NCBI GenBank assembly: GCA_963732915.1
Contig: CAVTBF010000003.1
Coordinates: 675,970-739,969, forward strand
DNA: 64,000 nt
DNA from: an uncultured Actinomycetes bacterium
GTDB lineage: Bacteria; Actinomycetota; Thermoleophilia; Gaiellales; Gaiellaceae
Reading direction: 5' to 3'
Shown here piece after piece: positions 4,255-60,858 of the stretch. Position numbers and translations under genes: made by a program. The notes under the pieces are model-generated. The model saw only the letters and a program-made list of their open reading frames with translations. It was not told the origin of the DNA and made no database searches. Positions within the stretch are counted from its first letter, which is position 1, and every line of letters starts with the position of its first letter.

Positions 4255-5078
4255 GCCGCCTCCTCGGGGTGGCCTTGGTAGACGCCGACCACGCGGAGCG
4301 CGGCGGCCTGGGATGCGAGCTCGCGGAGCGCGAGCCGGACGTTGGTCTCGAGCGGGTGGCCCGCGACGACGGCGTCGAAGCGGTAGCGCCACGGCGTCGC
4401 CGGCAGCGGGCGGGACACGAGGCGCACGAGGTCGAGCCCGACCCGCGCGAACGGCTCGATCGCCTTGAACAGCGCCCCCGGCTGGTGGTCGGTCACGAAC
4501 GTGAACGCCGTGCGCGAGTTGCTGCCGGCGGCCAGCTGCGTGAACGGGGCGATCGAGACGAAGCGCGTGAACGCGAGCCGGTCGCCCGCGTCGGCGACGA
4601 GCACGGTCAGCCCGTACAGCTCGGCCGCCGCGGGCGAGACGAGCGCCGCCACGGCCGGGTCGCCGGCCTCCGCGATCCGCCGCCCCGCCTCCGCCGTCGT
4701 CACCGCGGGAACGACGTCGACCGCCAGGCTCGCGAGCAGGCTGCGGCACTGGTCGAGCGCGGTCGGGTGCGAGTGGACGGTGCGGATCTCGTCGAGCGGC
4801 GTCGGACCGCTCGCGACGAGGCAGTGCGTGATCGGCATGATCGTCTCGCCGACGATCGAGAGCGACCGCTCGTAGAGCAGGTCGTGCGTCTCGGCGACCG
4901 AGCCGGCGAGCGAGCTCTCGATCGGCAGGACGCCGTAGGCGACGTCGGCGGCGAGGACGGCGTCGGCCACCGCCCTGAAGCCGCCGACCGGCAGGTACGG
5001 GCCCGAGGGGAAGAGCGCGACCGCCGCAGCGGCGGTGTGCGTGCCGGGAGGTCCCGGATAGGCGACCGGAGGGGTCAT
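4251..5078 (-). CDS. pheA: Prephenate dehydratase
   Basis: 275 aa. PDT domain ('VLPIESSLAGSVAETHDLL', 'TRFV') plus C-terminal ACT domain ('TAFTFVTDHQPGALFKAIEPFARVGLDLVRLVSRP'). Confidence 0.93.
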   Translation of the reverse strand: MTPPVAYPGPPGTHTAAAAVALFPSGPYLPVGGFRAVADAVLAADVAYGVLPIESSLAGSVAETHDLLYERSLSIVGETIMPITHCLVASGPTPLDEIRTVHSHPTALDQCRSLLASLAVDVVPAVTTAEAGRRIAEAGDPAVAALVSPAAAELYGLTVLVADAGDRLAFTRFVSIAPFTQLAAGSNSRTAFTFVTDHQPGALFKAIEPFARVGLDLVRLVSRPLPATPWRYRFDAVVAGHPLETNVRLALRELASQAAALRVVGVYQGHPEEAA

Positions 5079-5242
5079 CGCCGGAGACGGAGCGGCACAC
5101 GCAGTCCGCAGCGCTGACAGAGAACGACGGCCGCGCCCTTCCGCTCGGCCCGCTCCACCGGCACGGGATCGCTGCAGCTGCAGCGGTCCGGGTGGTTGGT
5201 GGCGAGGCGAACGACGGTTTCGGTGAGGGTGGTCTGATGCAA
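5075..5242 (-). CDS. Unannotated 55-codon ORF encoding a CxC...CxxC (zinc-ribbon-like) microprotein
   Basis: TTG start 10 nt after AGGAGG. Peptide (M)HQTTLTETVVRLATNHPDRCSCSDPVPVERAERKGAAVVLCQRCGLRVPLRLRR. Its TGA overlaps the pheA ATG (ATGA). Below the 60-aa cutoff of the track. Confidence 0.45.
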   Translation of the reverse strand: MHQTTLTETVVRLATNHPDRCSCSDPVPVERAERKGAAVVLCQRCGLRVPLRLRR

Positions 5243-5297
5243 GGCGGAATGGCCTCCTGGACAGAAGGGAAGTCCCGCGGGGGAGAAACGCTTCTTT

Positions 5298-5338
5298 GCT
5301 AGCCGGCGGCGGGGCGGGGAGCGAAAGCGCCGGCTAGC
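5298..5338 (-). terminator. Stem-loop downstream of leuB (11-bp perfect stem GCTAGCCGGCG / CGCCGGCTAGC)
   Basis: Perfect inverted repeat with a 19-nt loop, about 80 nt after the leuB stop. No clear U-tract. Confidence 0.4.
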
Positions 5339-5418
5339 CGATAAAGGCGTACGCCGAGTAGCCGCCGAAAAACGGAATGAACTGCGCGGCGGTCGGCGCG
5401 AACACCATCGACGGCAGG

Positions 5419-6444
5419 CTAGATGTGCGCGGAAGCCCCGTCAACGGCGAGTTGTGCCCTAATCGCCGCGCCGAGCTCGGCCGTCGTCGCCGTGCCGCCG
5501 AGATCCGGTGTCGGTGCGAGCTCGAGTCCGCGGTCGACCGCGTCGGCGAGCGCCCGCGCCTCGTCCGGCCGTCCGAGCCCGTGCTCGAGCAGAAGCGCGG
5601 TCGAGCGGAGCATTGCCGCCGGATTCGCAATCCCGCGGCCGGCGATGTCGGGGGCGGAGCCGTGCACCGGCTCGAAGATCCCCGGCCCCGAGTCGGAGAG
5701 GCTGGCCGAAGGGGCGAGACCCAGCCCGCCGGTGACCGCGGCGGCGAGGTCGGAGAGGATGTCGCCGAACATGTTCTCGGTCACCAGCACGTCGAAGCGC
5801 TCGGGCCGGGTCGCGATCTGCATGGCGCAGTTGTCGACGAGCATGTGCTCGACGGTCACGTCCGGGTACTCGGGCGCGATCTGGTCGACGACCCGCCGCC
5901 ACAGCCGCGACGTGTCGAGCACGTTCGCCTTGTCCACCGACAGCAGATAGCCGCGGCGCGTGCCGGCGAGCACGAACGCGCGCCGCGCCACCCGCTCCAC
6001 CTGGCTCGGGTGGTACTCGCACGTGTCGAAGACGGTGCCGTCCTCGCGGACGCCGCGGGCGCCGAAGTAGAGCCCGCCGATCAGCTCGCGGACGATCAGC
6101 AGGTCGACGTCGCCGCCGTCCCGATTCGCCTGCACCGCCGGGCGCAGGTTCGCGTACGCGTCGAGCTCGGCGCGCAGGCGGAGCATCCCCTGCTCGGGCC
6201 GCACCTCCGCCCCGTCGAACTCGGGGTCGCCGATCGGCGCCTTGAGGACGGCGGTCGCCGCGCGGCAGGCCGCGAGCGTCTCGTCCGGCAGCGAGGATCC
6301 GGTCGCCCGGATCGCCGCGCCGCCGAGCAGCTGCTCCTCGATCTCGACGTCGGGAGCGAGGAGCTCGAGCGCGAGCCGCGCCTCGTGTGCGACCTCCGGC
6401 CCGACTCCGTCGCCGGGCAGAAGGACAACTCTCGGGCTAGACAT
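5419..6444 (-). CDS. leuB: 3-isopropylmalate dehydrogenase
   Basis: 341 aa. 'VVLLPGDGVGPEV', 'SVDKANVL', 'ENMFGDILSDLAA', 'HGSAPDIAGRGIANP'. Confidence 0.95.
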   Translation of the reverse strand: MSSPRVVLLPGDGVGPEVAHEARLALELLAPDVEIEEQLLGGAAIRATGSSLPDETLAACRAATAVLKAPIGDPEFDGAEVRPEQGMLRLRAELDAYANLRPAVQANRDGGDVDLLIVRELIGGLYFGARGVREDGTVFDTCEYHPSQVERVARRAFVLAGTRRGYLLSVDKANVLDTSRLWRRVVDQIAPEYPDVTVEHMLVDNCAMQIATRPERFDVLVTENMFGDILSDLAAAVTGGLGLAPSASLSDSGPGIFEPVHGSAPDIAGRGIANPAAMLRSTALLLEHGLGRPDEARALADAVDRGLELAPTPDLGGTATTAELGAAIRAQLAVDGASAHI

Positions 6445-6697
6445 CGAGGAGCGCGCCCTCCTCGCCCACCGTCCGGCGCGGCCGTCCGCGCGGGCGGGGA
6501 TTGAAACCTGCGGCGATCATCGCCTCGTTCCAGCTGCCGAACACGCGAGCAACAGTCTGACGGGAGGGATGGTTCTCTCCCGCCTGGTCCCACTCGCTCG
6601 TGAACGGGGGCCGGCTATGCCTGCGGTACCAGAGAGTGATCGCGTAGACGATCGTCTCCGGCGTCCACCGGAAGCCCGTCCGCGGGCCGGTTCTCAT
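6437..6697 (-). CDS. Small protein with one homing-endonuclease-associated (HNH_repeat-like) motif
   Basis: 86 aa. 'WTPETIVYAITLWYRRHSRPPFTSEWDQ...HPSRQTVARVFGSWNEAMIAAGF'. Stop overlaps the leuB start by 8 nt. More A/T-ending codons than its neighbours. Confidence 0.6.
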   Translation of the reverse strand: MRTGPRTGFRWTPETIVYAITLWYRRHSRPPFTSEWDQAGENHPSRQTVARVFGSWNEAMIAAGFNPRPRGRPRRTVGEEGALLDV

Positions 6698-6733
6698 CGC
6701 GCACCTCCTTGGGTCGTCGTTGGCCTACAGCGC

Positions 6734-7999
6734 TTACACCTGGACACCGAGCAGCTCCAGGATCGAGTCGGCGTCGGGCGCGACCAGGGTCGGGTCGAGC
6801 CGGTCGGCCACGAGGGCAGGGGTCTTGAGGCCGTCGCCGGTGACGACGAGGACGACCGAGTCGGACTCGCCGAGCTCGCCGCGGGCGACCGCCTCGCGGA
6901 GCGCGCCGAGCGCGACCGCGGGCGCGGTCTCGCCGAAGACGCCGGTCGTCTCGGCGAGCAGGACGATGTTCTCGGGCACGTCCTCCTCGGCGACCGCATG
7001 GATCGAGCCGCCGGACGAGCGGGCGGTCGCGAGCGCGAGCTCGCCGTCGGCCGGGCTGCCGATCGCGAGCGAGCGGGCGATCGTGGCGGGCCGCACCGGC
7101 TTGACGCGGCCGCCGTTGTGGAAGGCGGTCGCGACCGGGGCACAACCCTCCGCCTGGCCACCGAAGAGGCGTGGCGAGGAGCCGTCGACGAGACCGAGCT
7201 CCTGCAGCTCGGCGAAGCCCTGGTGGATCTTCGAGTACATCGCGCCCGAGGCGATCGGGGCGACGACGGCGTCCGGCGTCCGCCAGCCGAGCTGCTCGGC
7301 GATCTCGAAGGCGATCGTCTTCGAGCCCTCGGCGTAGTAGGCGCGAAGGCCGACGTTGACGAACGCCCAACTTCCCTCGGGATGGGCGAGCTCGAAGGAG
7401 AGCTCGACCGACAGGCGCGAGCAGTCGTCGTAGGTGCCGTCGACGGCGAGGATGCGGGCGCCGTAGACCGCGGTGGCGAGCAACTTCTCCGGCTCGAGGT
7501 CGGCCGGGCAGAGCACGACCGCCTCGATCCCCTCCGCGGCCGCGCGGGCGGCGACCGCGTTGGCGAGGTTGCCGGTCGAGGAGCAGGAGAGCGTCGTGGC
7601 GCCGGCCTCGAGCGCCTTGGCGCAGGCGACGGCGACGACACGGTCCTTGAACGAGTGCGTCGGGTTGGCGGTGTCGAGCTTGAGCCAGAGCTCGCCGACA
7701 CCGACCGCCGCGGCGAGCCTGGGAGCCGTGACGAGCGGGGTGAACCCCGGTGCGAGCCGCTGCTCGGCGGGTGCGGCGACGGGAAGCAACGGGGCGTAGC
7801 GCCAGATCGAGGGCGGACCTGCGGCGATCGACTCCCGGCTGACGACGCGGCGCTGCTCGTCCCGGTCGTACACCGGGTCGAGCGGCCCGAAGCAGCGCGA
7901 GCAGACACCGATCGGATCGAGGGGGTACTGCGTCTCGCAGACGCGGCACCGAAGTGCGGCGGCGGGCAAAGCGGTCTCCTTTCGTCCTTCGCTCAACAT
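6734..7999 (-). CDS. Threonine-synthase-family PLP enzyme (second ThrC paralogue) with N-terminal zinc ribbon
   Basis: C-terminal 421 codons of track ORF 6734..9979. 'CRVCETQ...CSRCFG', PLP-lysine motif 'NPTHSFKDR', 'SSTGNLANA'. ATG 7999 lies in riboswitch helix P1. Alternative TTG 7969 sits behind AAGGAG. Confidence 0.9.
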   Translation of the reverse strand: MLSEGRKETALPAAALRCRVCETQYPLDPIGVCSRCFGPLDPVYDRDEQRRVVSRESIAAGPPSIWRYAPLLPVAAPAEQRLAPGFTPLVTAPRLAAAVGVGELWLKLDTANPTHSFKDRVVAVACAKALEAGATTLSCSSTGNLANAVAARAAAEGIEAVVLCPADLEPEKLLATAVYGARILAVDGTYDDCSRLSVELSFELAHPEGSWAFVNVGLRAYYAEGSKTIAFEIAEQLGWRTPDAVVAPIASGAMYSKIHQGFAELQELGLVDGSSPRLFGGQAEGCAPVATAFHNGGRVKPVRPATIARSLAIGSPADGELALATARSSGGSIHAVAEEDVPENIVLLAETTGVFGETAPAVALGALREAVARGELGESDSVVLVVTGDGLKTPALVADRLDPTLVAPDADSILELLGVQV

Positions 8000-8113
8000 C
8001 CCCCGAGCTCCACCGTGGAGCCCGGCCGGGCTTGGCACCTTTCTCGCGCTGTGGCGGGCAGGTTGCCGAGGCGTCATCGGGCCGGTTCCCTCAGCCTCTC
8101 TCGATGCGGAGCG
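7990..8113 (-). promoter_or_regulatory. SAM-I (S-box) riboswitch
   Basis: Minus-strand RNA: CGCUCCGCAUC GAGAG AGGCUGAGGGAACCGGCCCGAUGACGCCUCGGCAACC...GGUGCCAAGCCCGGCCGGGC...GAUGUUGAGCG. All conserved S-box core elements are recognisable. The P1 3' strand includes the AUG. Confidence 0.85.
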
Positions 8114-8160
8114 GGACGAGCCCGTCTCCGGTAGTGCGGTGTCACTATACAAAAACAAGC

Positions 8161-9855
8161 TCAACGCAGGACGGCTCCTTCCGAAGCCGACGAGACGCCC
8201 GCCGCGTAGCGAGCGAAGACACCGGTCGTGTAGCGCGGCTCCGGGTGAACGACCGCGGCGAGCCGGGCCGCGAGCTCCTCCTCGGAGAGGAGGACGCGCA
8301 GCTCGCGCGCCTCGACGTCCAGCTCGATCGTGTCGCCGTCGCGCAGGGCGGCGATCGGGCCGCCGTGCGCGGCCTCGGGCGCGACGTGGCCGACCATCAG
8401 CCCGTGCGTGGCGCCGGAGAAGCGGCCGTCGGTGATCAGCGCCACCTCGTCGCCGATCCCCTCGCCGACGATCGCAGCGGTGACGTGGAGCATCTCGCGC
8501 ATCCCGGGGCCGCCCGCGGGGCCTTCGTAGCGGATGACGACGACGTCGCCCGCCTCGATCTTCCGCGCCTTGACCGCGGCGAAGCACTGCTCCTCGGAGT
8601 CGAAGACGCGGGCAGGCCCGGAATGGGAGAGCCGCTCGTGACCGGCGAGCTTGACGACGCAGCCGTCGGGCGCGAGGTTGCCGCGCAGGATCGCGAGCCC
8701 GCCGGTCGCCTTGAGCGGACGCTCGATCGGGACGACGACCTCCTGGCCGGGTGTCTCGACGGCAGCGCGCGCGATCTCGGCGAGCGTGCGCCCGTCGACC
8801 GTCGGCGCGTCGCCGTGGATGAGCCCGGCCTTCAGCAGCTCGCGGGCGACGAGGGCGACGCCGCCGGCCGCGTGCAGGTCGGTGGCGACGAAGCGGCCGC
8901 CCGGCGTGATGTCGGCGACCACCGGTGTGCGCGAGGCGATCTCGTCGAACTCGTCGATCGTGAGCGGGACGCCGAGCTCGCGCGCGATCGCGAGCAGGTG
9001 AAGGACGCCGTTGGTCGAGCCGCCGGTGGCGGCGACGGAGGCCACGGCGTTCTCGAGCGCCACCCGGGTGAGGATCTGCGAGGGACGGACGTCGTCGCGG
9101 ACGAGGCGCATCGCGATCTTGCCGGCCTCGTAGGCGGCATCCTTCTTGGCCGGGTCGGTGGCGGGCACGTCGTTCAGCCCGGACGGAGCGATGCCGAGGA
9201 ACTCGACGACGGTCGCCATCGTGTTCGCCGTGAACTGCCCGCCGCACGCGCCCGCGCCCGGACAGGCGGCGTCCTCCAGCTCGTGCACGTCCTCCGGGCT
9301 CATCTTCCCGGCGGCGGCGGCGCCGACCGCCTCGAAGACGTCCTGGATCGTCACGTCGCGGTCGCGGTAGCGCCCCGGCGCGATCGAGCCGTTGTAGAGC
9401 ACGAGGCCGGGCACGTCGAGCCGTGCGAGCGCCATCACCGCCGCGGGGATCGTCTTGTCGCAGCCGACGAGACAGACGAGCCCGTCGAGCAGGTGGCCGC
9501 GGACGACGAGCTCGATCGAGTCGGCGATCGTCTCGCGGGAGACGAGCGAGGCGCGCATCCCCTCGGTGCCCATCGAGACGCCGTCCGAGACCGCGATCGT
9601 GTTGAACTCGACCGGCGTCCCGCCCGCCTCGATGATCCCGCGCCGGACGTGCCGCGCCAGCTCGCGCTGGTTCCAGTTGCACGGCATGGTCTCGATCCAG
9701 TTGGTCGCGATGCCGACGAGCGGCCGCGCGAGCGCCTCGTCGTCGAGCCCGATCGCCTTCAGCATCGCGCGTGCCGGAGCGCGGTCGACGCCGTCGGTGA
9801 TCGCGGCGCTGTGCCGCTTGGCGGGATCGGTCGGGGTCGAGTACGGGTCGCTCAT
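8161..9855 (-). CDS. ilvD: Dihydroxy-acid dehydratase
   Basis: 564 aa. 'AMLKAIGL', '[24 protein letters not shown]', '[10 protein letters not shown]', '[14 protein letters not shown]'. Confidence 0.96.
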
Positions 9856-10030: not shown

Positions 10031-10846
10031 TCATGCCTGGCCGGCTCCTTTGGTTGCGACAGCGAGATTGAGGATGTCGTGCTCGGGGAAGCGCGCCGCG
10101 AGCTGGGCGGCGACCTCGTCGGCGTGCGGACGCTCGGCCCAGACGATCACCGTCGGCCCGGAGCCCGACAGCGTCGCGCCGAGCGCGCCCGAGGGGAGGT
10201 CGTCGCGGATGGCGTGCAGGTGGGGCGCGCGGGCCGCTCGATACGGCTCGTGCAGGCGATCGTCGGCGCTTGCGGCGAGCAGCCGAGCGTCGCCGGCGGC
10301 GAGCGCCGCGCCGAGCAGCGCCGCGCGCCCCGCGCTGAAGACGGCGTCCGCGTACCGCACCTCCTGCGGCAGGGAGGCACGCGCCTCGGCCGTCTTCACG
10401 CGCTCTTTCGGAACGACGGCGATCGCGGCCGCGGGCACGTCGTCTGCGATCCGCGCGATCCGTCCTTCCCAGGTCAGGCAGACGCCGCCGGCCAGCGCCG
10501 CCGCGAGGTTGTCGGCATGGCCCTCGAGCTCGAGCCCGGCCGCGAGCAGCTCGTCGGTCGTCGGGGTCGCGCCGGCTGCCGCCGCGCCCGCGACGAGGCC
10601 GAGCGCGACGACGGCGGCGCTCGAGCCGAGGCCGCGCTCACGCGGGATCCGGTCGGTGAACCGGAACGAGTAGGCGTCGGGGTCGGCGAAGAGCGCGAAC
10701 GCGCGGACGGCGAGATGCTCGCGATCCGGAGGCGTCCCGTTGCGCTCGCCGAGCTCGAGCTCGTTCCAGAGCTCGAATGCGACCGCGGCAACGTCGAACC
10801 CGGAGCCGAGGTTCGCGCTCGTCGCGGGCGCCCTGACGTGAATCAC
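10031..10846 (-). CDS. thrB: Homoserine kinase
   Basis: Last 271 codons of track ORF 10031..11623. '[15 protein letters not shown]', '[12 protein letters not shown]'. Its GTG start overlaps the thrC stop (GTGA). Confidence 0.92.
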
Positions 10847-11724
10847 GCGACCGCCTTCACGAGCGCGTCGACGTCCTTCAGGCCGTGCCCGGTGACGATG
10901 CAAACGACGCGCGAGCCGGCCGCGGGCGGAGACGCCTCGACGGCGGCGATCCCGGAGGCGCTCGCCGGCTCGCAGAACAGCCCCTCCTCGCGGGCGAGCG
11001 CGAGCCAGGCGCGCTCGATCTGCTGCTCGGTGAGCGAGACGACGCTGCCGCCGGAGCGCTCGAGCACCCGGTCGACCTCGGCGCGGTGGACGGGCTCGAC
11101 GATCCGGATCGCGGACGCGAACGTGTCGGCGCGGCGGGCGGCCTCGCCGAGCAGGAAGCGCGGCAGCTCGTCGCCGAAGCCCTGGGCGTAGGCGACCGTG
11201 TTGCCGCCGCCGCCGAAGGGCAACGCGAGCACGTCGGGCACCCCGCCGAGCTGGCGGACGATCTCCCCGGCGGCGCGGCTCTGGCCCTCGATCCGGTCGG
11301 GGTTGATCGAGTTGACGTTGACGAGCCCTTCCTCGTCGGCGAGCCGGCGCGCCTCGCGATGCGCATCCTCGAACGAGCCGTCGATCTCGCGGAGCTCCGC
11401 GCCGGCCGCGCGCGCCTGCGCCACCTTGCCGCCGGCGATCGCCCCCCGCGGCCCGAGCACGACCGCGCGGATCCCGGCGCGGGCCGCGTACGCGGCGGCC
11501 GAGGCGGCGGTGTTGCCGGTGGACGCGCACACGACGCCGGTCGCGCCGCGCTCGACCGCCCGGCTGACCGCCACGGCCATGCCGCGATCCTTGAACGACC
11601 CGGTCGGGTTCGCCCCTTCCCACTTCAGCCAGACCTCGACGCCGATCCGCGCCGAGAGGCGCGGCGCCGGCAGGAGCGGCGTCCGGCCCTCACCGAGCGT
11701 CACCGCGGCGTCGGCCATCCTCAT
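10843..11724 (-). CDS. thrC: Threonine synthase (short canonical form)
   Basis: 293 aa. 'LGEGRTPLL', 'NPTGSFKDRGM', 'ASTGNTAASAAAYAA', 'IVTGHGLKD'. ATGA overlap with the hom stop. Confidence 0.92.
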   Translation of the reverse strand: MRMADAAVTLGEGRTPLLPAPRLSARIGVEVWLKWEGANPTGSFKDRGMAVAVSRAVERGATGVVCASTGNTAASAAAYAARAGIRAVVLGPRGAIAGGKVAQARAAGAELREIDGSFEDAHREARRLADEEGLVNVNSINPDRIEGQSRAAGEIVRQLGGVPDVLALPFGGGGNTVAYAQGFGDELPRFLLGEAARRADTFASAIRIVEPVHRAEVDRVLERSGGSVVSLTEQQIERAWLALAREEGLFCEPASASGIAAVEASPPAAGSRVVCIVTGHGLKDVDALVKAVA

Positions 11725-13010
11725 AGCGGCCGCTCCGAGATCACGGGCGCGAGAAAAGGGGGACGCAGCACCTCGGGGAACGTCGCCATCTCGGCGGCCA
11801 CCTTCGCGACCGCCCCGTACGGCGCCTCGTGGAGCACGACGTCGATCGTCGCCTCGCCGTCGCGCAGATGCTGGACGATCTGCGCGACGGAGATGTCGGC
11901 CGCGGCGAGCCGGCTCGTGGTGTGGGCGAGCACGCCGGGCCGGTCGGCGACCTCCAGGTGGAGGTAGAACGGCGAGCGCCAGGCTGCCGGGTCGAGCCGC
12001 GGCAGCTCACGCCAGCAGGCGTCGTTCTGGAGGAAGCCCGTGCCGGCCGTGCCGACGACGCTGACGAGGTCGGCCACGACCGCCGACGCCGTCTCGATCC
12101 CGCCCGCGCCGGGGCCTTCGAGCGTGATCTCGCGGATTGCGTCGCCCTGGAGCATGACCGCGTTGAAGGCGCCGTCGATCGCCGCGAGCGAGTGCGCGCG
12201 GTCGACGAAGGCCGGCTGGACGCGGACGTCCACGCCCTCCGGCGCGAGCGTCGCGATCCCGACGAGGCGCACGACCATCCCCAGCTCGGCGGCCGCCGTG
12301 ACGTGCGCCTGCTCGACCATGTCGATCCCGCGGGCGTCGACGTCACCGAGCTCGACCCGCGAGCCGAACGCGACGGTCGCGAGGATCGCCATCTTCGCGG
12401 CGGCGTCGGCACCCGTGACGTCGTCGGTCGGGTCGGCTTCGGCGTAGCCGAGCGCCTGCGCCTCGGCGAGCGCCTCGGCGTAGCTGCCGCCCGCTTCCAT
12501 CCGCGAGAGGACGAAGTTCGTCGTCCCGTTGACGATCCCGAGCACACGGTGGACGTTCGAGACGACGAGCGACTCACGCAGCACCTTGACGACCGGGATC
12601 GCGGCGCACACCGACGCCTCGAACCGCAGCTGCACGCCCCCCGCGGAGGCGGCCGCGAACAGATCGGCGCCCTCGCGCGCGATCAGCTGCTTGTTCGCCG
12701 AGACGACCGGCTTGCCCGCCTCGAGCAGCTCGCGGACGTAACGACCGGCCGGCTCGAGCCCGCCCATCACCTCGGCGACGACCGTCACCCGCGGGTCGTC
12801 CCGGATCGACTCGAAGTCGGTCGTGAGCACGCCGTCGCCGGCCGGAAAGCCGCGCTGCTTGGCGGGATCGCGGACGAGCGCGCGGACGACGCCGATCCGG
12901 TGCCCGGTCGCCCGCTCGATCTCGTCGCCGCTGTCGACGAGCAGCCGGTGCACCGCCGCGCCGACGGTGCCGTAGCCGAGGAGGGCGACGCCGACGTCAA
13001 CCGCTGACAC
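11721..13010 (-). CDS. hom: Homoserine dehydrogenase (with C-terminal ACT domain)
   Basis: 429 aa. '[13 protein letters not shown]', '[11 protein letters not shown]', '[12 protein letters not shown]'. Confidence 0.95.
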
Positions 13011-14685: not shown

Positions 14686-16419
14686 TCATAGGGCGAGCGC
14701 CTCCGAGTCGCTCTCGGGCGAGTACTCGACGACGTCGAGCGCGGCCGCCCCTGCCGGGATCATCGGGAAGCAGTGCTCGCGCGGGTCGACGCGGCAGTCC
14801 ACGACCGCGGTGCGGCCGCTGGCGAGCGCCTCGGCGAGCACGCCCTCCAGCTCCTCCTCCGCCTCGACCGTGAAGCCCAGAGCGCCGTAGGCGCGGGCGA
14901 GCATCGCGTAGTCGGGTAGCGCGTGCGTGAGGTGGCTCTGCGAGAAGCGCTCCTCGAAGAACATGTCCTGCCACTGCCGCACCATGCCGAGGTAGCCGTT
15001 GTTGACGATCACCACGACGATCGGCAGCTCCTCGAGTACGGACGTCGCCAGCTCCTGACAGGTCATCTGGAAGCAGCCGTCGCCGTCGACGCAGACGACG
15101 GTCGCGTCCGGACGGGCCGCCTTCGCCCCGACGGCGGCGGGCAGGCCGTAGCCCATCGTTCCGAGACCGCCGGAGGTGACGAACGTCCGCGGCCGGTCGC
15201 AGTCGAGGTACTGCATCGCCCACATCTGGTGCTGGCCGACACCGGTCGTCCAGACGACGTCGTCGCGGCCCGCGGTCAGGTCGCGCAGCGTCTCGAGCAC
15301 CTTCTGCGGCTTGAGCAGGTCGCCGCCCGCGCCGTAGCGAAGGGGGAAACGCTCGCGCCACTCGGCGATCTGCTCGAGCCACGGCTCCGTCCGCCCCGGC
15401 GTCGCCTCCTCGGCGACCTGCTTCGCCAGCTCGGCGAGCACCGACTTGAGCGGCCCCACCACGGGCACGTCGGCGTGGCGGATCTTCGAGATCTCCGCCG
15501 CGTCGACATCGAGATGGACGATCTTCGCTCCTGGCGCGAACGCCGCGACCTTGCCGGTGACGCGATCGTCGAACCGCGCGCCGGCCGCGACGATCACGTC
15601 CGCCTTGTTCAGTGCCCAGTTCGACCACTTCGGCCCGTGCATCCCCGGCCAGCCGACGTGCAGCTCGTGCGACTCGGGGAAGGCGCTCTTGGCCATCAGC
15701 GTCGTCACGACCGGGATCCGTGCGGCCGCCGCAAGGGCACGCAGCTCCTCGGTCGCGTCCGCGTTCAGCACTCCGCCGCCGGCGTAGATGATCGGCCGCT
15801 CCGCCGCGACGACGGCCTGAGCAGCAGCCGTGATCTGGCGAGGATGCCCGCGGCGCGGCGGCTTCCAGCCCGGGAGGGACACCTCGCTGGGATACGAGAA
15901 GTCGAGCTCCGCCTCCTGGATGTCGCGCGGAACGTCCACGAGCACGGGCCCGCAGCGGCCGGTGCTCGCGACGTGGAAGGCCGCCTTCATGACATGCGGC
16001 AGCTCGCTCACGTCCTGCACGAGCCACGAGTGCTTGACGATCGGGATCGTGATCCCGGTGATGTCGCACTCCTGGAAGGCGTCGGTGCCGATCAGGAAGC
16101 TCTTCACCTGGCCGGTGATGCAGACGAGCGGCGTCGAGTCCATCCACGCGTCCGCGATCGGCGTGACGAGGTTCGTCGCGCCCGGGCCCGAGGTCGCGAT
16201 CGCGACGCCGACGCGGCCCGACGCGCGCGCGTAGCCCTGGGCCATGTGACCTGCGCCCTGCTCGTGGCGGGCGAGGACGTGACGAACGGCCGTGCCCTTC
16301 GCCATCGCGTCGTAGAGCGGCAGGATGGCGCCGCCCGGGATCCCGAACATCACGTCGACGCCCTCCGCCTCGAGGCAGCGGAGGATCGCGTCGGCTCCGG
16401 TCATCCGTTGCCCGCTCAT
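14686..16419 (-). CDS. ilvB: Acetolactate synthase large (catalytic) subunit
   Basis: Last 577 codons of track ORF 14686..17046. 'GADAILRCLEAEGVDVMFGIPGGAILP', 'GGLGTMGYGLPAAVGA', 'VDGDGCFQMT'. ATGA overlap with the upstream gene. Confidence 0.95.
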   Translation of the reverse strand: MSGQRMTGADAILRCLEAEGVDVMFGIPGGAILPLYDAMAKGTAVRHVLARHEQGAGHMAQGYARASGRVGVAIATSGPGATNLVTPIADAWMDSTPLVCITGQVKSFLIGTDAFQECDITGITIPIVKHSWLVQDVSELPHVMKAAFHVASTGRCGPVLVDVPRDIQEAELDFSYPSEVSLPGWKPPRRGHPRQITAAAQAVVAAERPIIYAGGGVLNADATEELRALAAAARIPVVTTLMAKSAFPESHELHVGWPGMHGPKWSNWALNKADVIVAAGARFDDRVTGKVAAFAPGAKIVHLDVDAAEISKIRHADVPVVGPLKSVLAELAKQVAEEATPGRTEPWLEQIAEWRERFPLRYGAGGDLLKPQKVLETLRDLTAGRDDVVWTTGVGQHQMWAMQYLDCDRPRTFVTSGGLGTMGYGLPAAVGAKAARPDATVVCVDGDGCFQMTCQELATSVLEELPIVVVIVNNGYLGMVRQWQDMFFEERFSQSHLTHALPDYAMLARAYGALGFTVEAEEELEGVLAEALASGRTAVVDCRVDPREHCFPMIPAGAAALDVVEYSPESDSEALAL

Positions 16420-17392
16420 GCCCGCTCCGGCCAGAACTCGGCGTTGCGGAGCGAGAGCTGGAAGCCGGCGACGACGCGCGACGTGAAGTCGCGGGTCGAC
16501 GCGCCGAGTCCCCGGCGCAGCAGGTCCGGCGTCCGCGGCCCGTCGACGAGCGCGGCCGAGACCGCGCCGGCGAGGGTCGCTGCGGCGCCCGGCTGGTGCA
16601 GGCCGTACTCGAGCGCGAGCGCCGCCGCGAGCAGCATGCTGCTCGGATTGACGACTCCCCCTCCGGCCTCCGGCCGGGCAAGGGCGGCCGAGACGCCGTT
16701 GCCGCGCGCCTCGCCGGCGAGCGCGAAGCCGCCCTCCGGCGACGGCATGAACAGGCTCGGGCCGTGCCCGGCGAGCAGTGCGTGCGCGGCGACGCGGGCG
16801 GATGCGGGCGCGGCCACGATCTCGACGATCGGCTCGGCCCACCGCTCCGCGACCACGATGACGTCGAAGCGCGCCGCGTCGAAGGCGGCGAGCGGGACGG
16901 CCACCTTCGGCGAGAGGTACTCCGCGTCGACGTGGTCGTGTGCCTCGGCGACCTCCTCCGCCAGCTCGTGCCACTCGCGGTCGCCGACGACCGCGAGCCT
17001 CAGCCGGCGCGCCTCGGCGAGCTCGAATGCGGTCTCGAGCGTCCACGCGTCGGCCGACTCGTCGAGCGGCGAGACGATCGCCACGTCGTCGTCGCGGCCG
17101 AACCGCACGCGCGTTAGGCGTGCACGTAGGTCGAGCTCCGCCATCACTTCGGCCAGCGTCGGGTCCTCGGCCCCGGCCACGAGCACCGCGTCGGCGCCGA
17201 GAACGGCCGCGCGCGTCGCGGGCGGGAACGCCTGCCCGGCGCGGGCGACCGCCGGCGCTCCGAACGGCACGTGCACGTCGTCGATCTCGACCGCGTGGAG
17301 ACGCCCGACCGCGGAGAGCGCGAGCGCGGCCTCCGCCATCAGCTCCGGCGCGGTCCCGGCGCCCGCGAGACAGGCGACTGTCGCCCTGCGGG

Positions 17393-17396
<4 letters not shown>
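16416..17396 (-). CDS. Isocitrate/isopropylmalate-dehydrogenase-like protein lacking catalytic residues (probable pseudoenzyme)
   Basis: 326 aa. Collinear with LeuB of this window (GAGTAPEL, VNPSSMLLAAALALEYGL), but DKANV and GDILSD are replaced (GDREW, AEPIVE). ATGA overlaps at both ends. Confidence 0.8.
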
Positions 17397-18541
<1,145 letters not shown>

Positions 18542-59688: not shown

Positions 59689-60858
59689 ATGTTCGAGGTC
59701 TCGGGACAGGATCCCGCCGCGTGGTATACACCGCTCGTGGCGCCCCGCACGACTCCCCCCTTCCGCGCCGACCACGTCGGCAGCCTCCTCCGCCCGCCCG
59801 CGCTGCTGCAGGCCCGCGACGACTTCGCCGCCGGCCGGATCGACGCGGCCGAGCTGCGCGGAGTCGAGGACGAGGCGATCCGCGCCGCCGTCCGCATGCA
59901 GGAGGAGGTCGGCCTGCGTGCGGCCACCGACGGCGAGTTCCGCCGCGCCTCCTGGCACATGGACTTCATCTACCGGCTCGACGGCGTGACGAAGGAGGCC
60001 GGCGACATGGCCGTCCGCTTCCACAACGCCGGCGGCGACATCGAGTTCACGCCGGCCCAGCACCACGTCACCGGCAAGGTCTCGGTCTCGGAGACGATCT
60101 TCGGCGACGACTTCCGCTTCCTCGCCGACACCGTCTCGACCGCCGTCCCGAAGCTGACGATCCCGTCGCCGAGCATGGTTCACTACCGCGGCGGCCGCGC
60201 GGCGATCGACGAGTCGGTGTATCCGGACATGGACTCGTTCTGGGCCGACCTCGCTGCCGCCTACACCGACGAGGTGGGACGCCTCGGGGCGCTCGGGTGC
60301 CGCTACCTGCAGGTCGACGACACGAGCCTCGCCTACCTGAACGACCCGGCGCAGCGCTCCTACATCGCGACGATGGGCGGCGACCCCGACTCGCAGCACG
60401 TCGAGTACATCCACCACATCAACGAGGCGATCGCCGGCAGGCCGGAGGGGATGGCGGTGACGACGCACATGTGCCGCGGCAACTTCCGGTCGTCGTGGGT
60501 CGCGTCGGGCGACTACGAGTTCGTCGCCGAGGCGCTCTTCAGCGAGCTGGCGGTGGACGGCTTCTTCATGGAGTGGGACGACGAGCGCTCGGGCGGCTTC
60601 GCGCCGCTTCGCTTCGTGCCGCCCGGCAAGACGGTCGTGCTCGGGCTCGTGACGACGAAGCAGCCCGAGCTCGAGGCGAAGGACGCGCTCAAGCGGCGGA
60701 TCGAGGAGGCGAGCCGCTACGTCGACGTCGAGCAGCTCTGCATCTCGCCGCAGTGCGGCTTCTCGTCCACGGTCGAGGGGAACGCGCTCACCTACGACGA
60801 CGAGGTGGCGAAGCTCCGGCTCGTCGCCGAGGTCGCCGGCGAGGTCTGGGGGGCCTAG
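59689..60858 (+). CDS. Cobalamin-independent methionine synthase (MetE C-terminal domain)-like protein
   Basis: 389 aa. 'PFRADHVGSLLRP', 'THMCRGNF', 'ISPQCGFSS'. Start set at ATG 59689; the track ORF opens at 59410. Confidence 0.88.
   Translation: MFEVSGQDPAAWYTPLVAPRTTPPFRADHVGSLLRPPALLQARDDFAAGRIDAAELRGVEDEAIRAAVRMQEEVGLRAATDGEFRRASWHMDFIYRLDGVTKEAGDMAVRFHNAGGDIEFTPAQHHVTGKVSVSETIFGDDFRFLADTVSTAVPKLTIPSPSMVHYRGGRAAIDESVYPDMDSFWADLAAAYTDEVGRLGALGCRYLQVDDTSLAYLNDPAQRSYIATMGGDPDSQHVEYIHHINEAIAGRPEGMAVTTHMCRGNFRSSWVASGDYEFVAEALFSELAVDGFFMEWDDERSGGFAPLRFVPPGKTVVLGLVTTKQPELEAKDALKRRIEEASRYVDVEQLCISPQCGFSSTVEGNALTYDDEVAKLRLVAEVAGEVWGA

Follow-up and report, generated by a model that had tools for sequence, protein, structure and literature searches.

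The closest described counterpart of the system presented here is the MetM/MetO pathway of Streptomyces albulus. According to PMC12172450 and a GapMind 2026 preprint, MetM is a homologue of threonine synthase (ThrC) which converts O-phosphohomoserine to homocysteine together with the carrier MetO, Mec and MoeZ, the last two being named in the description given by the preprint. The original report (Hasebe, Adachi, Maruyama, Hamano 2024, Appl Environ Microbiol 90:e01247-24) is cited as represented in these two sources; MetM is commonly misannotated as ThrC, and PMC12172450 places a SAM (S-adenosylmethionine) riboswitch upstream of S. albulus metM. A SAM riboswitch ahead of a ThrC-like homocysteine synthase that depends on O-phosphohomoserine has been published and is not new in kind. 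We analysed a 64-kb stretch of DNA (GC 73%) from an uncultured Gaiellaceae bacterium, called the window below, to which all statements on the gene content of the source organism refer. On its minus strand a SAM-I (S-box) riboswitch precedes a gene for a second ThrC-like enzyme dependent on pyridoxal phosphate (PLP), and this locus was compared with about 60 related loci retrieved from metagenomes (labelled L001 onward). The locus is a real feature; the function guessed for it in an earlier note was largely right though known in kind, and the start codon and the switch needed correction.

The window resembles the S. albulus system in having a ThrC-homologous PLP enzyme under a SAM riboswitch, annotated as threonine synthase, for which O-phosphohomoserine is the logical substrate. 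It differs in that no metO is adjacent, the gene lies within a thrC-thrB-ilvD-X-leuB-pheA supercluster, and the predicted expression platform is compact, with a 5' competitor hairpin and not a long 3' sequestor. The metM-metO operons of Solirubrobacterales and Conexibacter and of Nonomuraea share its riboswitch class and enzyme family (Solirubrobacterales also belong to Thermoleophilia), but there the carrier gene is present, the 5' hairpin is absent and the leaders instead have a ~60-nt spacer with a classical anti-Shine-Dalgarno (anti-SD) element. In Mycobacterium tuberculosis, CysM acts with CysO, Mec and MoeZ to make cysteine from O-phosphoserine and a thiocarboxylated carrier. The likeness lies in the combination of a phosphorylated hydroxy-amino acid with a protein thiocarboxylate, and the MetO found in our relatives is of the CysO-like ThiS/MoaD type; CysM, however, belongs to the CysK/CysM PLP lineage and is not ThrC-like, its product is cysteine, and there is no SAM riboswitch.

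With respect to regulation, the window shares with the classical Firmicutes S-box the RF00162 aptamer and, as predicted, the OFF switch and the methionine/SAM gene target. The classical platform is a terminator/antiterminator placed 3' of the aptamer, whereas the present leader has no terminator, an SD sequence ~10 nt past P1 and a competing helix 5' of the aptamer. The adenine (add) riboswitch of Vibrio vulnificus, a translational one, reportedly has three states (Reining et al. 2013) and is similar in that a 5'-proximal alternative pairing competes with P1 and makes the aptamer binding-incompetent; it differs in its ligand, in being an ON switch and in having no proposed masking of the start codon by a displaced strand.

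Different here is an order-level lineage in which the enzyme lacks metO in cis, sits inside an amino-acid biosynthesis supercluster and sometimes stands beside a sulfite reductase. In the literature searched, which is limited evidence, there was no description of a compact platform combining a 5' competitor hairpin with a constraint on the coding sequence. Gaiellaceae, like other Thermoleophilia, are actinobacteria abundant in soil, and most of what is known of them comes from metagenome-assembled genomes (MAGs). The first description of MetM dates from 2024, and annotation pipelines continue to name such genes threonine synthase; a call of probable homocysteine synthase fills an apparent gap, or explains a redundant thrC, in methionine reconstructions of Gaiellaceae. 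The form without metO raises the question whether this enzyme family needs a protein thiocarboxylate or can use sulfide, and the leader offers a compact case, supported by comparative genomics, of a competitor helix upstream of an aptamer and of regulation reaching into the coding sequence (CDS).

The SAM-I aptamer and the start of the regulated gene

The features needed first are as follows.
7993..8110, minus strand: SAM-I (S-box) aptamer with helices P1-P4, match to RF00162
7976..7980, minus strand: SD sequence AGGAG, 6 nt before the start codon; AAGGAG/GGAGG is conserved in relatives
7961..7969, minus strand: start codon TTG (7969-7967) with codons 2-3 CCC GCC; start conserved in relatives
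6734..7969, minus strand: putative MetM-family PLP enzyme of 411 aa with a four-cysteine zinc ribbon and PLP lysine K108; Pfam PALP, 221 bits

The window was scanned by cmscan against all 4227 Rfam families. RF00162 matched at 7993-8110 (-) with 64.9 bits against a gathering threshold of 44.4 (E 7.8e-13), covering model positions 1-108, that is the full model, and no second family was found in the 64 kb. The S-box claimed in the earlier note for 8113-7990 of the minus strand, for which an RF00162 match had been named as the check, was thereby confirmed, and so was its 11-bp P1 helix: extended P1 comprises 8113-8103 / 8000-7990 with a single C.U mismatch. The core of the four-way junction is complete in the consensus alignment (AUC.AGAG, GAGGGA, GCAACC, GGUGCCAA), and outer P1 pairs covary in the comparison with L001 and L004. 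One RF00162 match at the equivalent position was present in 40/40 tested Gaiellaceae-type relatives; the aptamer also lies upstream in 10/10 tested metM-metO metagenome loci, in L018 and in Nonomuraea, so that the pairing of riboswitch and enzyme family holds down to 52% protein identity. Judged from these alignments the SAM-I riboswitch is genuine, and SAM binding and repression are predicted.

The gene start was assigned by comparison, because in such GC-rich DNA the reading frame is open far upstream. Throughout the related loci the TTG at 7969-7967 has a conserved counterpart in the alignment, a GTG, ATG or TTG that stands before CCC GCC and has AAGGAG or GGAGG 6-9 nt ahead of it; by this alignment the protein has 411 aa and its start codon lies outside P1. 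The AUG at 7999-7997 inside P1, which the earlier note had taken as the start of a 421-aa product, was rejected: in L001 the AUG within P1 is directly followed by UGA, and of 51 distinct leaders 18 have this AUG in frame, equal to the chance rate, and 15 have it both in frame and open.

The same note had the P1 5' strand pair alternatively with the 3' strand of P4, and together with the start in P1 this formed its switch. The P4 hairpin is missing from ~30/50 related aptamers, which still reach 61-72 bits on RF00162, and most related aptamers carry the P4-less motif GGUGCCAA..CCCGG..GGAUG. The window P4 (8023-8004) would therefore be dispensable in the Gaiellaceae-type lineage and a P4-strand competitor cannot be general; with a TTG start outside P1 and a P4 that is not conserved, that mechanism was abandoned. 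P4-less loci are L004-L006, L009-L012, L014, L016, L018, L019, L023-L027, L029, L031, L034, L037-L039, L041-L044, L046-L049 and L071.

The ThrC-like enzyme and its sulfur supply

Related enzymes fall into three groups, which are described by identity to the window enzyme, riboswitch and gene context.
Group G: 63-85% identity; SAM-I in 40/40 tested; thrC-thrB-ilvD-X-(HNH_repeat, chorismate mutase or leuC)-leuB-pheA
Group N: 61-67% identity; no riboswitch; group G context, also Gaiellaceae
Group B: 52-56% identity; SAM-I in all 10; followed by a ThiS-family open reading frame (ORF) of 90-91 aa ending AVAGG (AVAGGC in L081)

The gene product is a fold-type II PLP protein whose K108 aligns with K61 of Thermus thermophilus ThrC (cysteines and lysine of the paralogue are numbered in the 411-aa form, family-specific positions as in T. 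thermophilus ThrC). Cysteines C8, C11, C23 and C26 of the N-terminal CxxC...CxxC ribbon are invariant in 65 relatives, and the entire N-terminal zinc-ribbon module is absent from the threonine synthases compared. The closest relatives are Gaiellaceae MAG proteins, each labelled 'threonine synthase'. In a neighbour-joining tree of four structurally solved ThrCs, the window ThrC and groups G, N and B, the solved ThrCs cluster with the canonical ThrC of the window, while G and N together are the sister group of B. The paralogue is 52-55% identical to metO-linked enzymes versus 38% to the window ThrC (36-38% to ThrCs), values for the latter being comparable to the published ThrC-to-MetM identity of ~33%; the 52-55% likewise agrees with the 51.6% published for a Microcystis homologue and MetM. 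Against the solved ThrCs the window ThrC scores 230-247 bits and the paralogue, though longer, 157-182 bits.

Thirteen columns invariant in the ThrCs carry one identical, different residue throughout G, N and B: G58H, G64V, M65V, T88L, A113E, Q119A, F134Y, N157R, R160Y, Q164S, A194K, A240S and D323T. G58H adjoins the PLP lysine, and T88 and R160 are positions which we take to be substrate-phosphate contacts in T. thermophilus ThrC. The metO-linked enzymes thus have the same zinc ribbon and the same 13 signature residues as the window enzyme. The TIGR00260 model (cutoff 167.1) gives the paralogue 241.3 bits and the metO-linked enzymes 270-289 bits; as the latter pass too, it does not discriminate ThrC from the MetM family, and NCBIfam contains no MetM model. 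Full-length homologues covering the zinc ribbon also occur on haloarchaeal megaplasmids (35-37% identity, annotated thrC).

By tree and residues, the paralogue is placed outside the threonine synthases, as sister to the enzymes of SAM-I/metM/metO operons, and we consider it highly probable that the riboswitch controls a MetM-family, non-ThrC enzyme. Homology, signature residues and regulatory logic make a homocysteine-forming function most likely. The second ThrC-family paralogue with a cysteine ribbon proposed in the earlier note is borne out by the PALP match and the four invariant cysteines, phylogeny and active-site residues set it apart from proven ThrCs, and profile matches to hom, thrC and thrB corroborate the canonical hom-thrC-thrB operon seen 3 kb away. 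The note's MetM idea stands as regards kinship to metO-linked enzymes and a by now published MetM/MetO pathway; its implied MetO partner does not, since no ThiS-like gene was found. The link to characterised S. albulus MetM is made through operon architecture and literature descriptions.

In metO-linked loci the enzyme gene overlaps a ThiS-like gene of 90-91 aa ending AVAGG or AVAGGC. In Nonomuraea gerenzanensis (L082) a SAM-I match of 68.7 bits is followed by the enzyme gene and by the gene of a carrier that ends IIPAVAGG. Among the matches listed, metM-metO was found in at least 80 Solirubrobacterales, Thermoleophilales or Conexibacter genomes (L083-L162, L097), the two overlapping genes forming an operon. 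Some MetO carriers end in GG-Cys and not in GG (L081, 4276-4551; L083, L152, L153), in agreement with the report that GG must first be laid bare by the Mec hydrolase. The L082 replicon (NZ_LT559118.1), listed in PLSDB as 'Nonomuraea gerenzanensis plasmid I', has 11.85 Mb, 10 annotated features and three ThrC-like places, and is evidently the chromosome.

The carrier was looked for in the window and its relatives. Searched at E<=10 with a MetO hidden Markov model, neither the window nor any locus of groups G and N gave a match, the window has no small ORF of coding quality ending in GG, synteny showed no metO beside the enzyme gene in ~60 Gaiellaceae-type loci, and a relative on a 2.1-Mb contig has no carrier gene within 10 kb of it. 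A MetO profile scan of 185,579 species genomes gave no Gaiellales-labelled locus among the matches listed, ranked by similarity (at least 80 loci, of the Solirubrobacterales type). The protein lists of G/N-type and B-type enzymes had no taxon in common among the best 120 matches of each search, which is weakly consistent with one enzyme type replacing the other rather than co-occurring. As the carrier partner was not found, we do not count this locus among the two-component MetM/MetO systems; a MetM-family enzyme working like MetM is still the most likely description. In L022 (about 4283-5930), L043 and L054 the gene that follows the MetM-like one codes for a sulfite-reductase (NIR_SIR) homologue, and in L001 such a gene lies 5 kb away (16288-17811) within a cysH/sirohaem sulfate-assimilation cluster; this adjacency hints at a link to sulfide supply. 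The sulfur donor may be a ThiS/CysO-type thiocarboxylate carrier encoded elsewhere, or free sulfide. It is conceivable, though rather unlikely in our estimate, that the enzyme is a carrier-independent O-phosphohomoserine sulfhydrylase using free sulfide, combined with an undescribed platform in which the 5' hairpin would oppose P1 when SAM is absent and sequester the start codon when SAM is bound, constraining the first codons. The loss of metO and the repeated proximity to sulfite reductase would agree with such a reading, which, if true, would mean that bacteria can reach homocysteine from the threonine pathway with a single enzyme.

Some points weigh against a MetM-like function: the 64-kb window has no metO, mec or moeZ, and a Microcystis homologue 51.6% identical to MetM and with a metO-like neighbour acted, as given in PMC12172450, as a threonine synthase/deaminase in vitro, so that ~50% identity is no guarantee of function. 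This last activity would also suit a second, SAM-repressed threonine synthase isozyme, whose zinc ribbon and signature residues were lineage peculiarities, as would the passing of TIGR00260 (241 bits vs 167) and the annotation of the relatives as threonine synthase in every source. That model, however, accepts metO-linked enzymes as well, the hom-thrC-thrB slot is already filled by another gene (10843-11724) whose product is much closer to the solved ThrCs, and 13 ThrC-invariant residues, T88 and R160 among them, are replaced. Switching threonine synthesis off by SAM would moreover oppose the known logic of control where the pathways part at O-phosphohomoserine; plant ThrC is activated by SAM. 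We regard an isozyme as very improbable. Nearly as improbable is that the enzyme carries out another replacement reaction relevant to SAM, with O-phosphohomoserine or a similar compound as substrate, for example formation of cystathionine from cysteine (the chemistry of plant cystathionine gamma-synthase (CGS) on a ThrC fold) or a reaction with some other nucleophile. It would account for the lack of a sulfur carrier in cis, unlike every metM-metO locus, and ThrC-fold enzymes have diversified to other nucleophiles, a cysteate synthase model matching weakly; yet the 13 signature residues are identical in metO-less and metO-linked groups, which argues for the same chemistry, and the sulfite reductase next to the gene at several loci suggests that the donor is sulfide or derives from it.

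The leader and the proposed switch

Upstream of and around the aptamer three further elements were delineated.
8144..8149, minus strand: -10-like element TATAGT right after the ilvD stop codon, called on conservation; predicted transcription start ~8137-8140
8108..8129, minus strand: predicted 5' hairpin H5 (anti-P1), RNAfold -11.5 kcal/mol
7982..7987, minus strand: 3' strand GGACGA of P0, a predicted extension of P1, pairing with UCGUCC 8119-8114 across a 2-nt AA bulge

TATAGT is conserved just after the ilvD stop codon: most Gaiellaceae-type loci have the motif ...TTTTGTATAGT... at a distance of 9-14 nt before the 5' hairpin. The leader would therefore have its own promoter. The call rests on conservation because a sigma-70 consensus scan of 6300-8400 gave no full -35/-10 promoter. 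No intrinsic terminator was found in that region, and none after the aptamer.

H5 consists of the 5' arm GGAG-A-CGGG (8129-8121), the loop CUCGU (8120-8116) and the 3' arm CCCG-CUCC (8115-8108), the last being made up of the P0 strand and the outer half of the P1 5' strand. Sequences were folded singly and compared with dinucleotide shuffles. A hairpin of this type is predicted in 48/48 unique group G leaders, with several pair types at most positions (GCGGG/CCCGC, GCGAGG/CCUCGC, GCAGGC/GCCUGC, GGAA/UUCC); the mean energy is -12.2 kcal/mol (z -1.96) and the P1 strand is engaged in 46/46. Nine group B and 71 Solirubrobacterales leaders gave -3.4 to -3.8 kcal/mol, with a mean of about -3.5 and z ~0. 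RNAalifold on equal-length 5' segments returned no structure, and the variable loop could not be placed by MAFFT. According to these folding models, the 5' hairpin is specific to the Gaiellaceae-type lineage and competes with P1.

P0 (8119-8114 / 7987-7982, 6 bp) ends 1-2 nt ahead of the SD sequence, belongs to the minimum free energy (MFE) structure of the leader and is predicted in the duplexes of most relatives. It was also considered whether the SD sequence itself pairs with the 5' flank (P0/P-1, extending as far as the start codon); this is not claimed, as cognate and non-cognate medians were the same. For the predicted transcript the P1-closed fold has -86.0 and the hairpin fold -81.1 kcal/mol; the two lie close in energy and are mutually exclusive.

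In the P1-closed MFE structure the released arm CGGGC (8124-8120) pairs with GCCCG (7967-7963), which runs from the third base of the start codon through codon 2 into the first base of codon 3. At riboswitch-bearing loci codon 2 is Pro in 42/48 and never CCG (0/42; gene-wide 61% CCG), and codon 3 is Ala in 45/48 and never GCG (0/45; gene-wide 49% GCG); in the riboswitch-less group N these codons are unconserved. This constraint on the synonymous sites of CCC GCC fits pairing with the hairpin 5' arm and is the strongest evidence for it, being independent of folding. Duplexes of the arm with the translation initiation region (TIR) average -15.7 kcal/mol compared with -11.0 (sd 3.3) for shuffled TIRs, and cognate pairs are better than non-cognate ones (p = 0.006). 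When the TIR is ranked among windows of the CDS to which it belongs, it comes within the best 5% at 12/47 loci (2.4 expected), and the median rank is 0.20. Variants of arm and start are wobble-compatible or compensated, as in L043 (GCAGGC/GCCUGC), L026 (GAAGCGGGC/GCCCGCUUC), L027, L034 and L013; the register shifts to CCCGUG in L037, L041 and L042, and in L047 the duplex is near-equal in that register.

We propose that a dedicated promoter after ilvD drives a leader whose SAM-I aptamer would control a MetM-family enzyme turning O-phosphohomoserine made by ThrB into homocysteine. Without SAM, H5 (8129-8108) would hold the outer P1 5' strand, leaving the SD sequence and the start codon single-stranded and translation ON. 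With SAM, P1 would close and zip outward through P0 to the nucleotide before the SD sequence, and the displaced G-rich 5' arm would pair with the start codon and codons 2-3 (GCCCG), blocking initiation (OFF). High SAM would in this way shut the methionine branch at O-phosphohomoserine, while the unregulated canonical ThrC would continue to supply threonine. Riboswitch, MetM-type enzyme and 5'-hairpin switch taken together form the best explanation, which we hold to be moderately probable; for the specific arm-to-start-codon mechanism the chances appear even.

Some results on the leader speak against this mechanism. The P1-closed state is computed to be ~5 kcal/mol more stable than the hairpin state even without ligand, cognate and non-cognate medians are equal beyond P1, which makes the statistical support of P0 weak, the contrast of cognate and non-cognate arm-TIR duplexes is small, and the codon-usage counts come from loci sharing ancestry and are not corrected for phylogeny. 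The TIR of the window itself ranks only 0.33, no better than a third of the windows in its GC-rich CDS. This low rank counts in favour of an alternative in which regulation proceeds by steric occlusion, the SAM-bound aptamer with P1 and P0 standing right against the SD sequence, or by Rho-dependent termination or mRNA decay following reduced translation, with the 5' hairpin only tuning the SAM threshold through its competition with P1. The lack of an intrinsic terminator in 6300-8400 agrees with it, such absence being typical of high-GC actinobacteria relying on Rho. The SD sequence begins 1-2 nt past P0, and aptamers adjacent to a ribosome binding site (RBS) can occlude it without incorporating it (review PMC10907184). 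Occlusion alone nevertheless leaves unexplained why G-ending codons 2-3 are fully avoided where the riboswitch is present and why the conservation of these codons is lost where it is not, and the compensatory variants in L043 and L026 and the CCCGUG shift also speak against it; we regard this alternative as possible but unlikely.

Two observations concern other leaders. Those of the riboswitch-less group N (L050, L051, L053, L058-L061, L065, L066; enzyme 61-67% identical, same synteny) have a motif ttcattt.gtaaagt, similar to the promoter that precedes the riboswitch at other loci, directly ahead of the SD sequence, as if the aptamer had been deleted. The metM-metO leaders L069, L074, L077, L078 and L079 have a classical 3' platform, in which a CCCUUCGCC element can form a helix with either GGCGAAG or the SD region GCGAAGGGAG; a further hairpin, GUGUGGCG...CGCCACAC, shares bases with the 3' strand of P1.

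Neighbouring genes and pathway context

The following genes surround the locus or bear on its pathway.
11721-13010, minus strand: hom
10843..11724, minus strand: canonical thrC, compact, 293 aa; TIGR00260 197.7 bits vs cutoff 167.1; clusters with solved ThrCs
10031..10846, minus strand: thrB, homoserine kinase, source of O-phosphohomoserine; TIGR00191 168.6 bits vs cutoff 168.25
8161-9855, minus strand: ilvD
6437..6697, minus strand: 86-aa HNH_repeat ORF between the enzyme gene and leuB; Pfam PF18780, 34 bits
59737-60858, plus strand: short MetE-type homocysteine S-methyltransferase, 373 aa; NF005085, 451 bits

Upstream, ilvC, ilvN and ilvB lie on the same strand as ilvD, thrB, thrC and hom; downstream of the enzyme gene follow the 86-aa ORF, leuB, pheA and a chorismate mutase gene. 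The 86-aa ORF has a strong SD sequence (AAGGAGG), its end overlaps the leuB start, it is 74-92% identical in the closest relatives, and it is probably co-transcribed with the enzyme gene. As a MetO candidate it was rejected, being an HNH_repeat protein without ThiS or MetO similarity.

No Rfam riboswitch precedes the MetE-type gene at 59737-60858, whose product would consume homocysteine from the MetM-like enzyme. The canonical ThrC has 293 aa compared with ~350 for the solved ThrCs, and its gene has 4-nt overlaps with both hom and thrB. In L001 (5513-7294) the public gene call fuses Homoserine_dh, ACT and PALP in a 593-aa product, the ThrC part of which is only 47% identical to the window ThrC.

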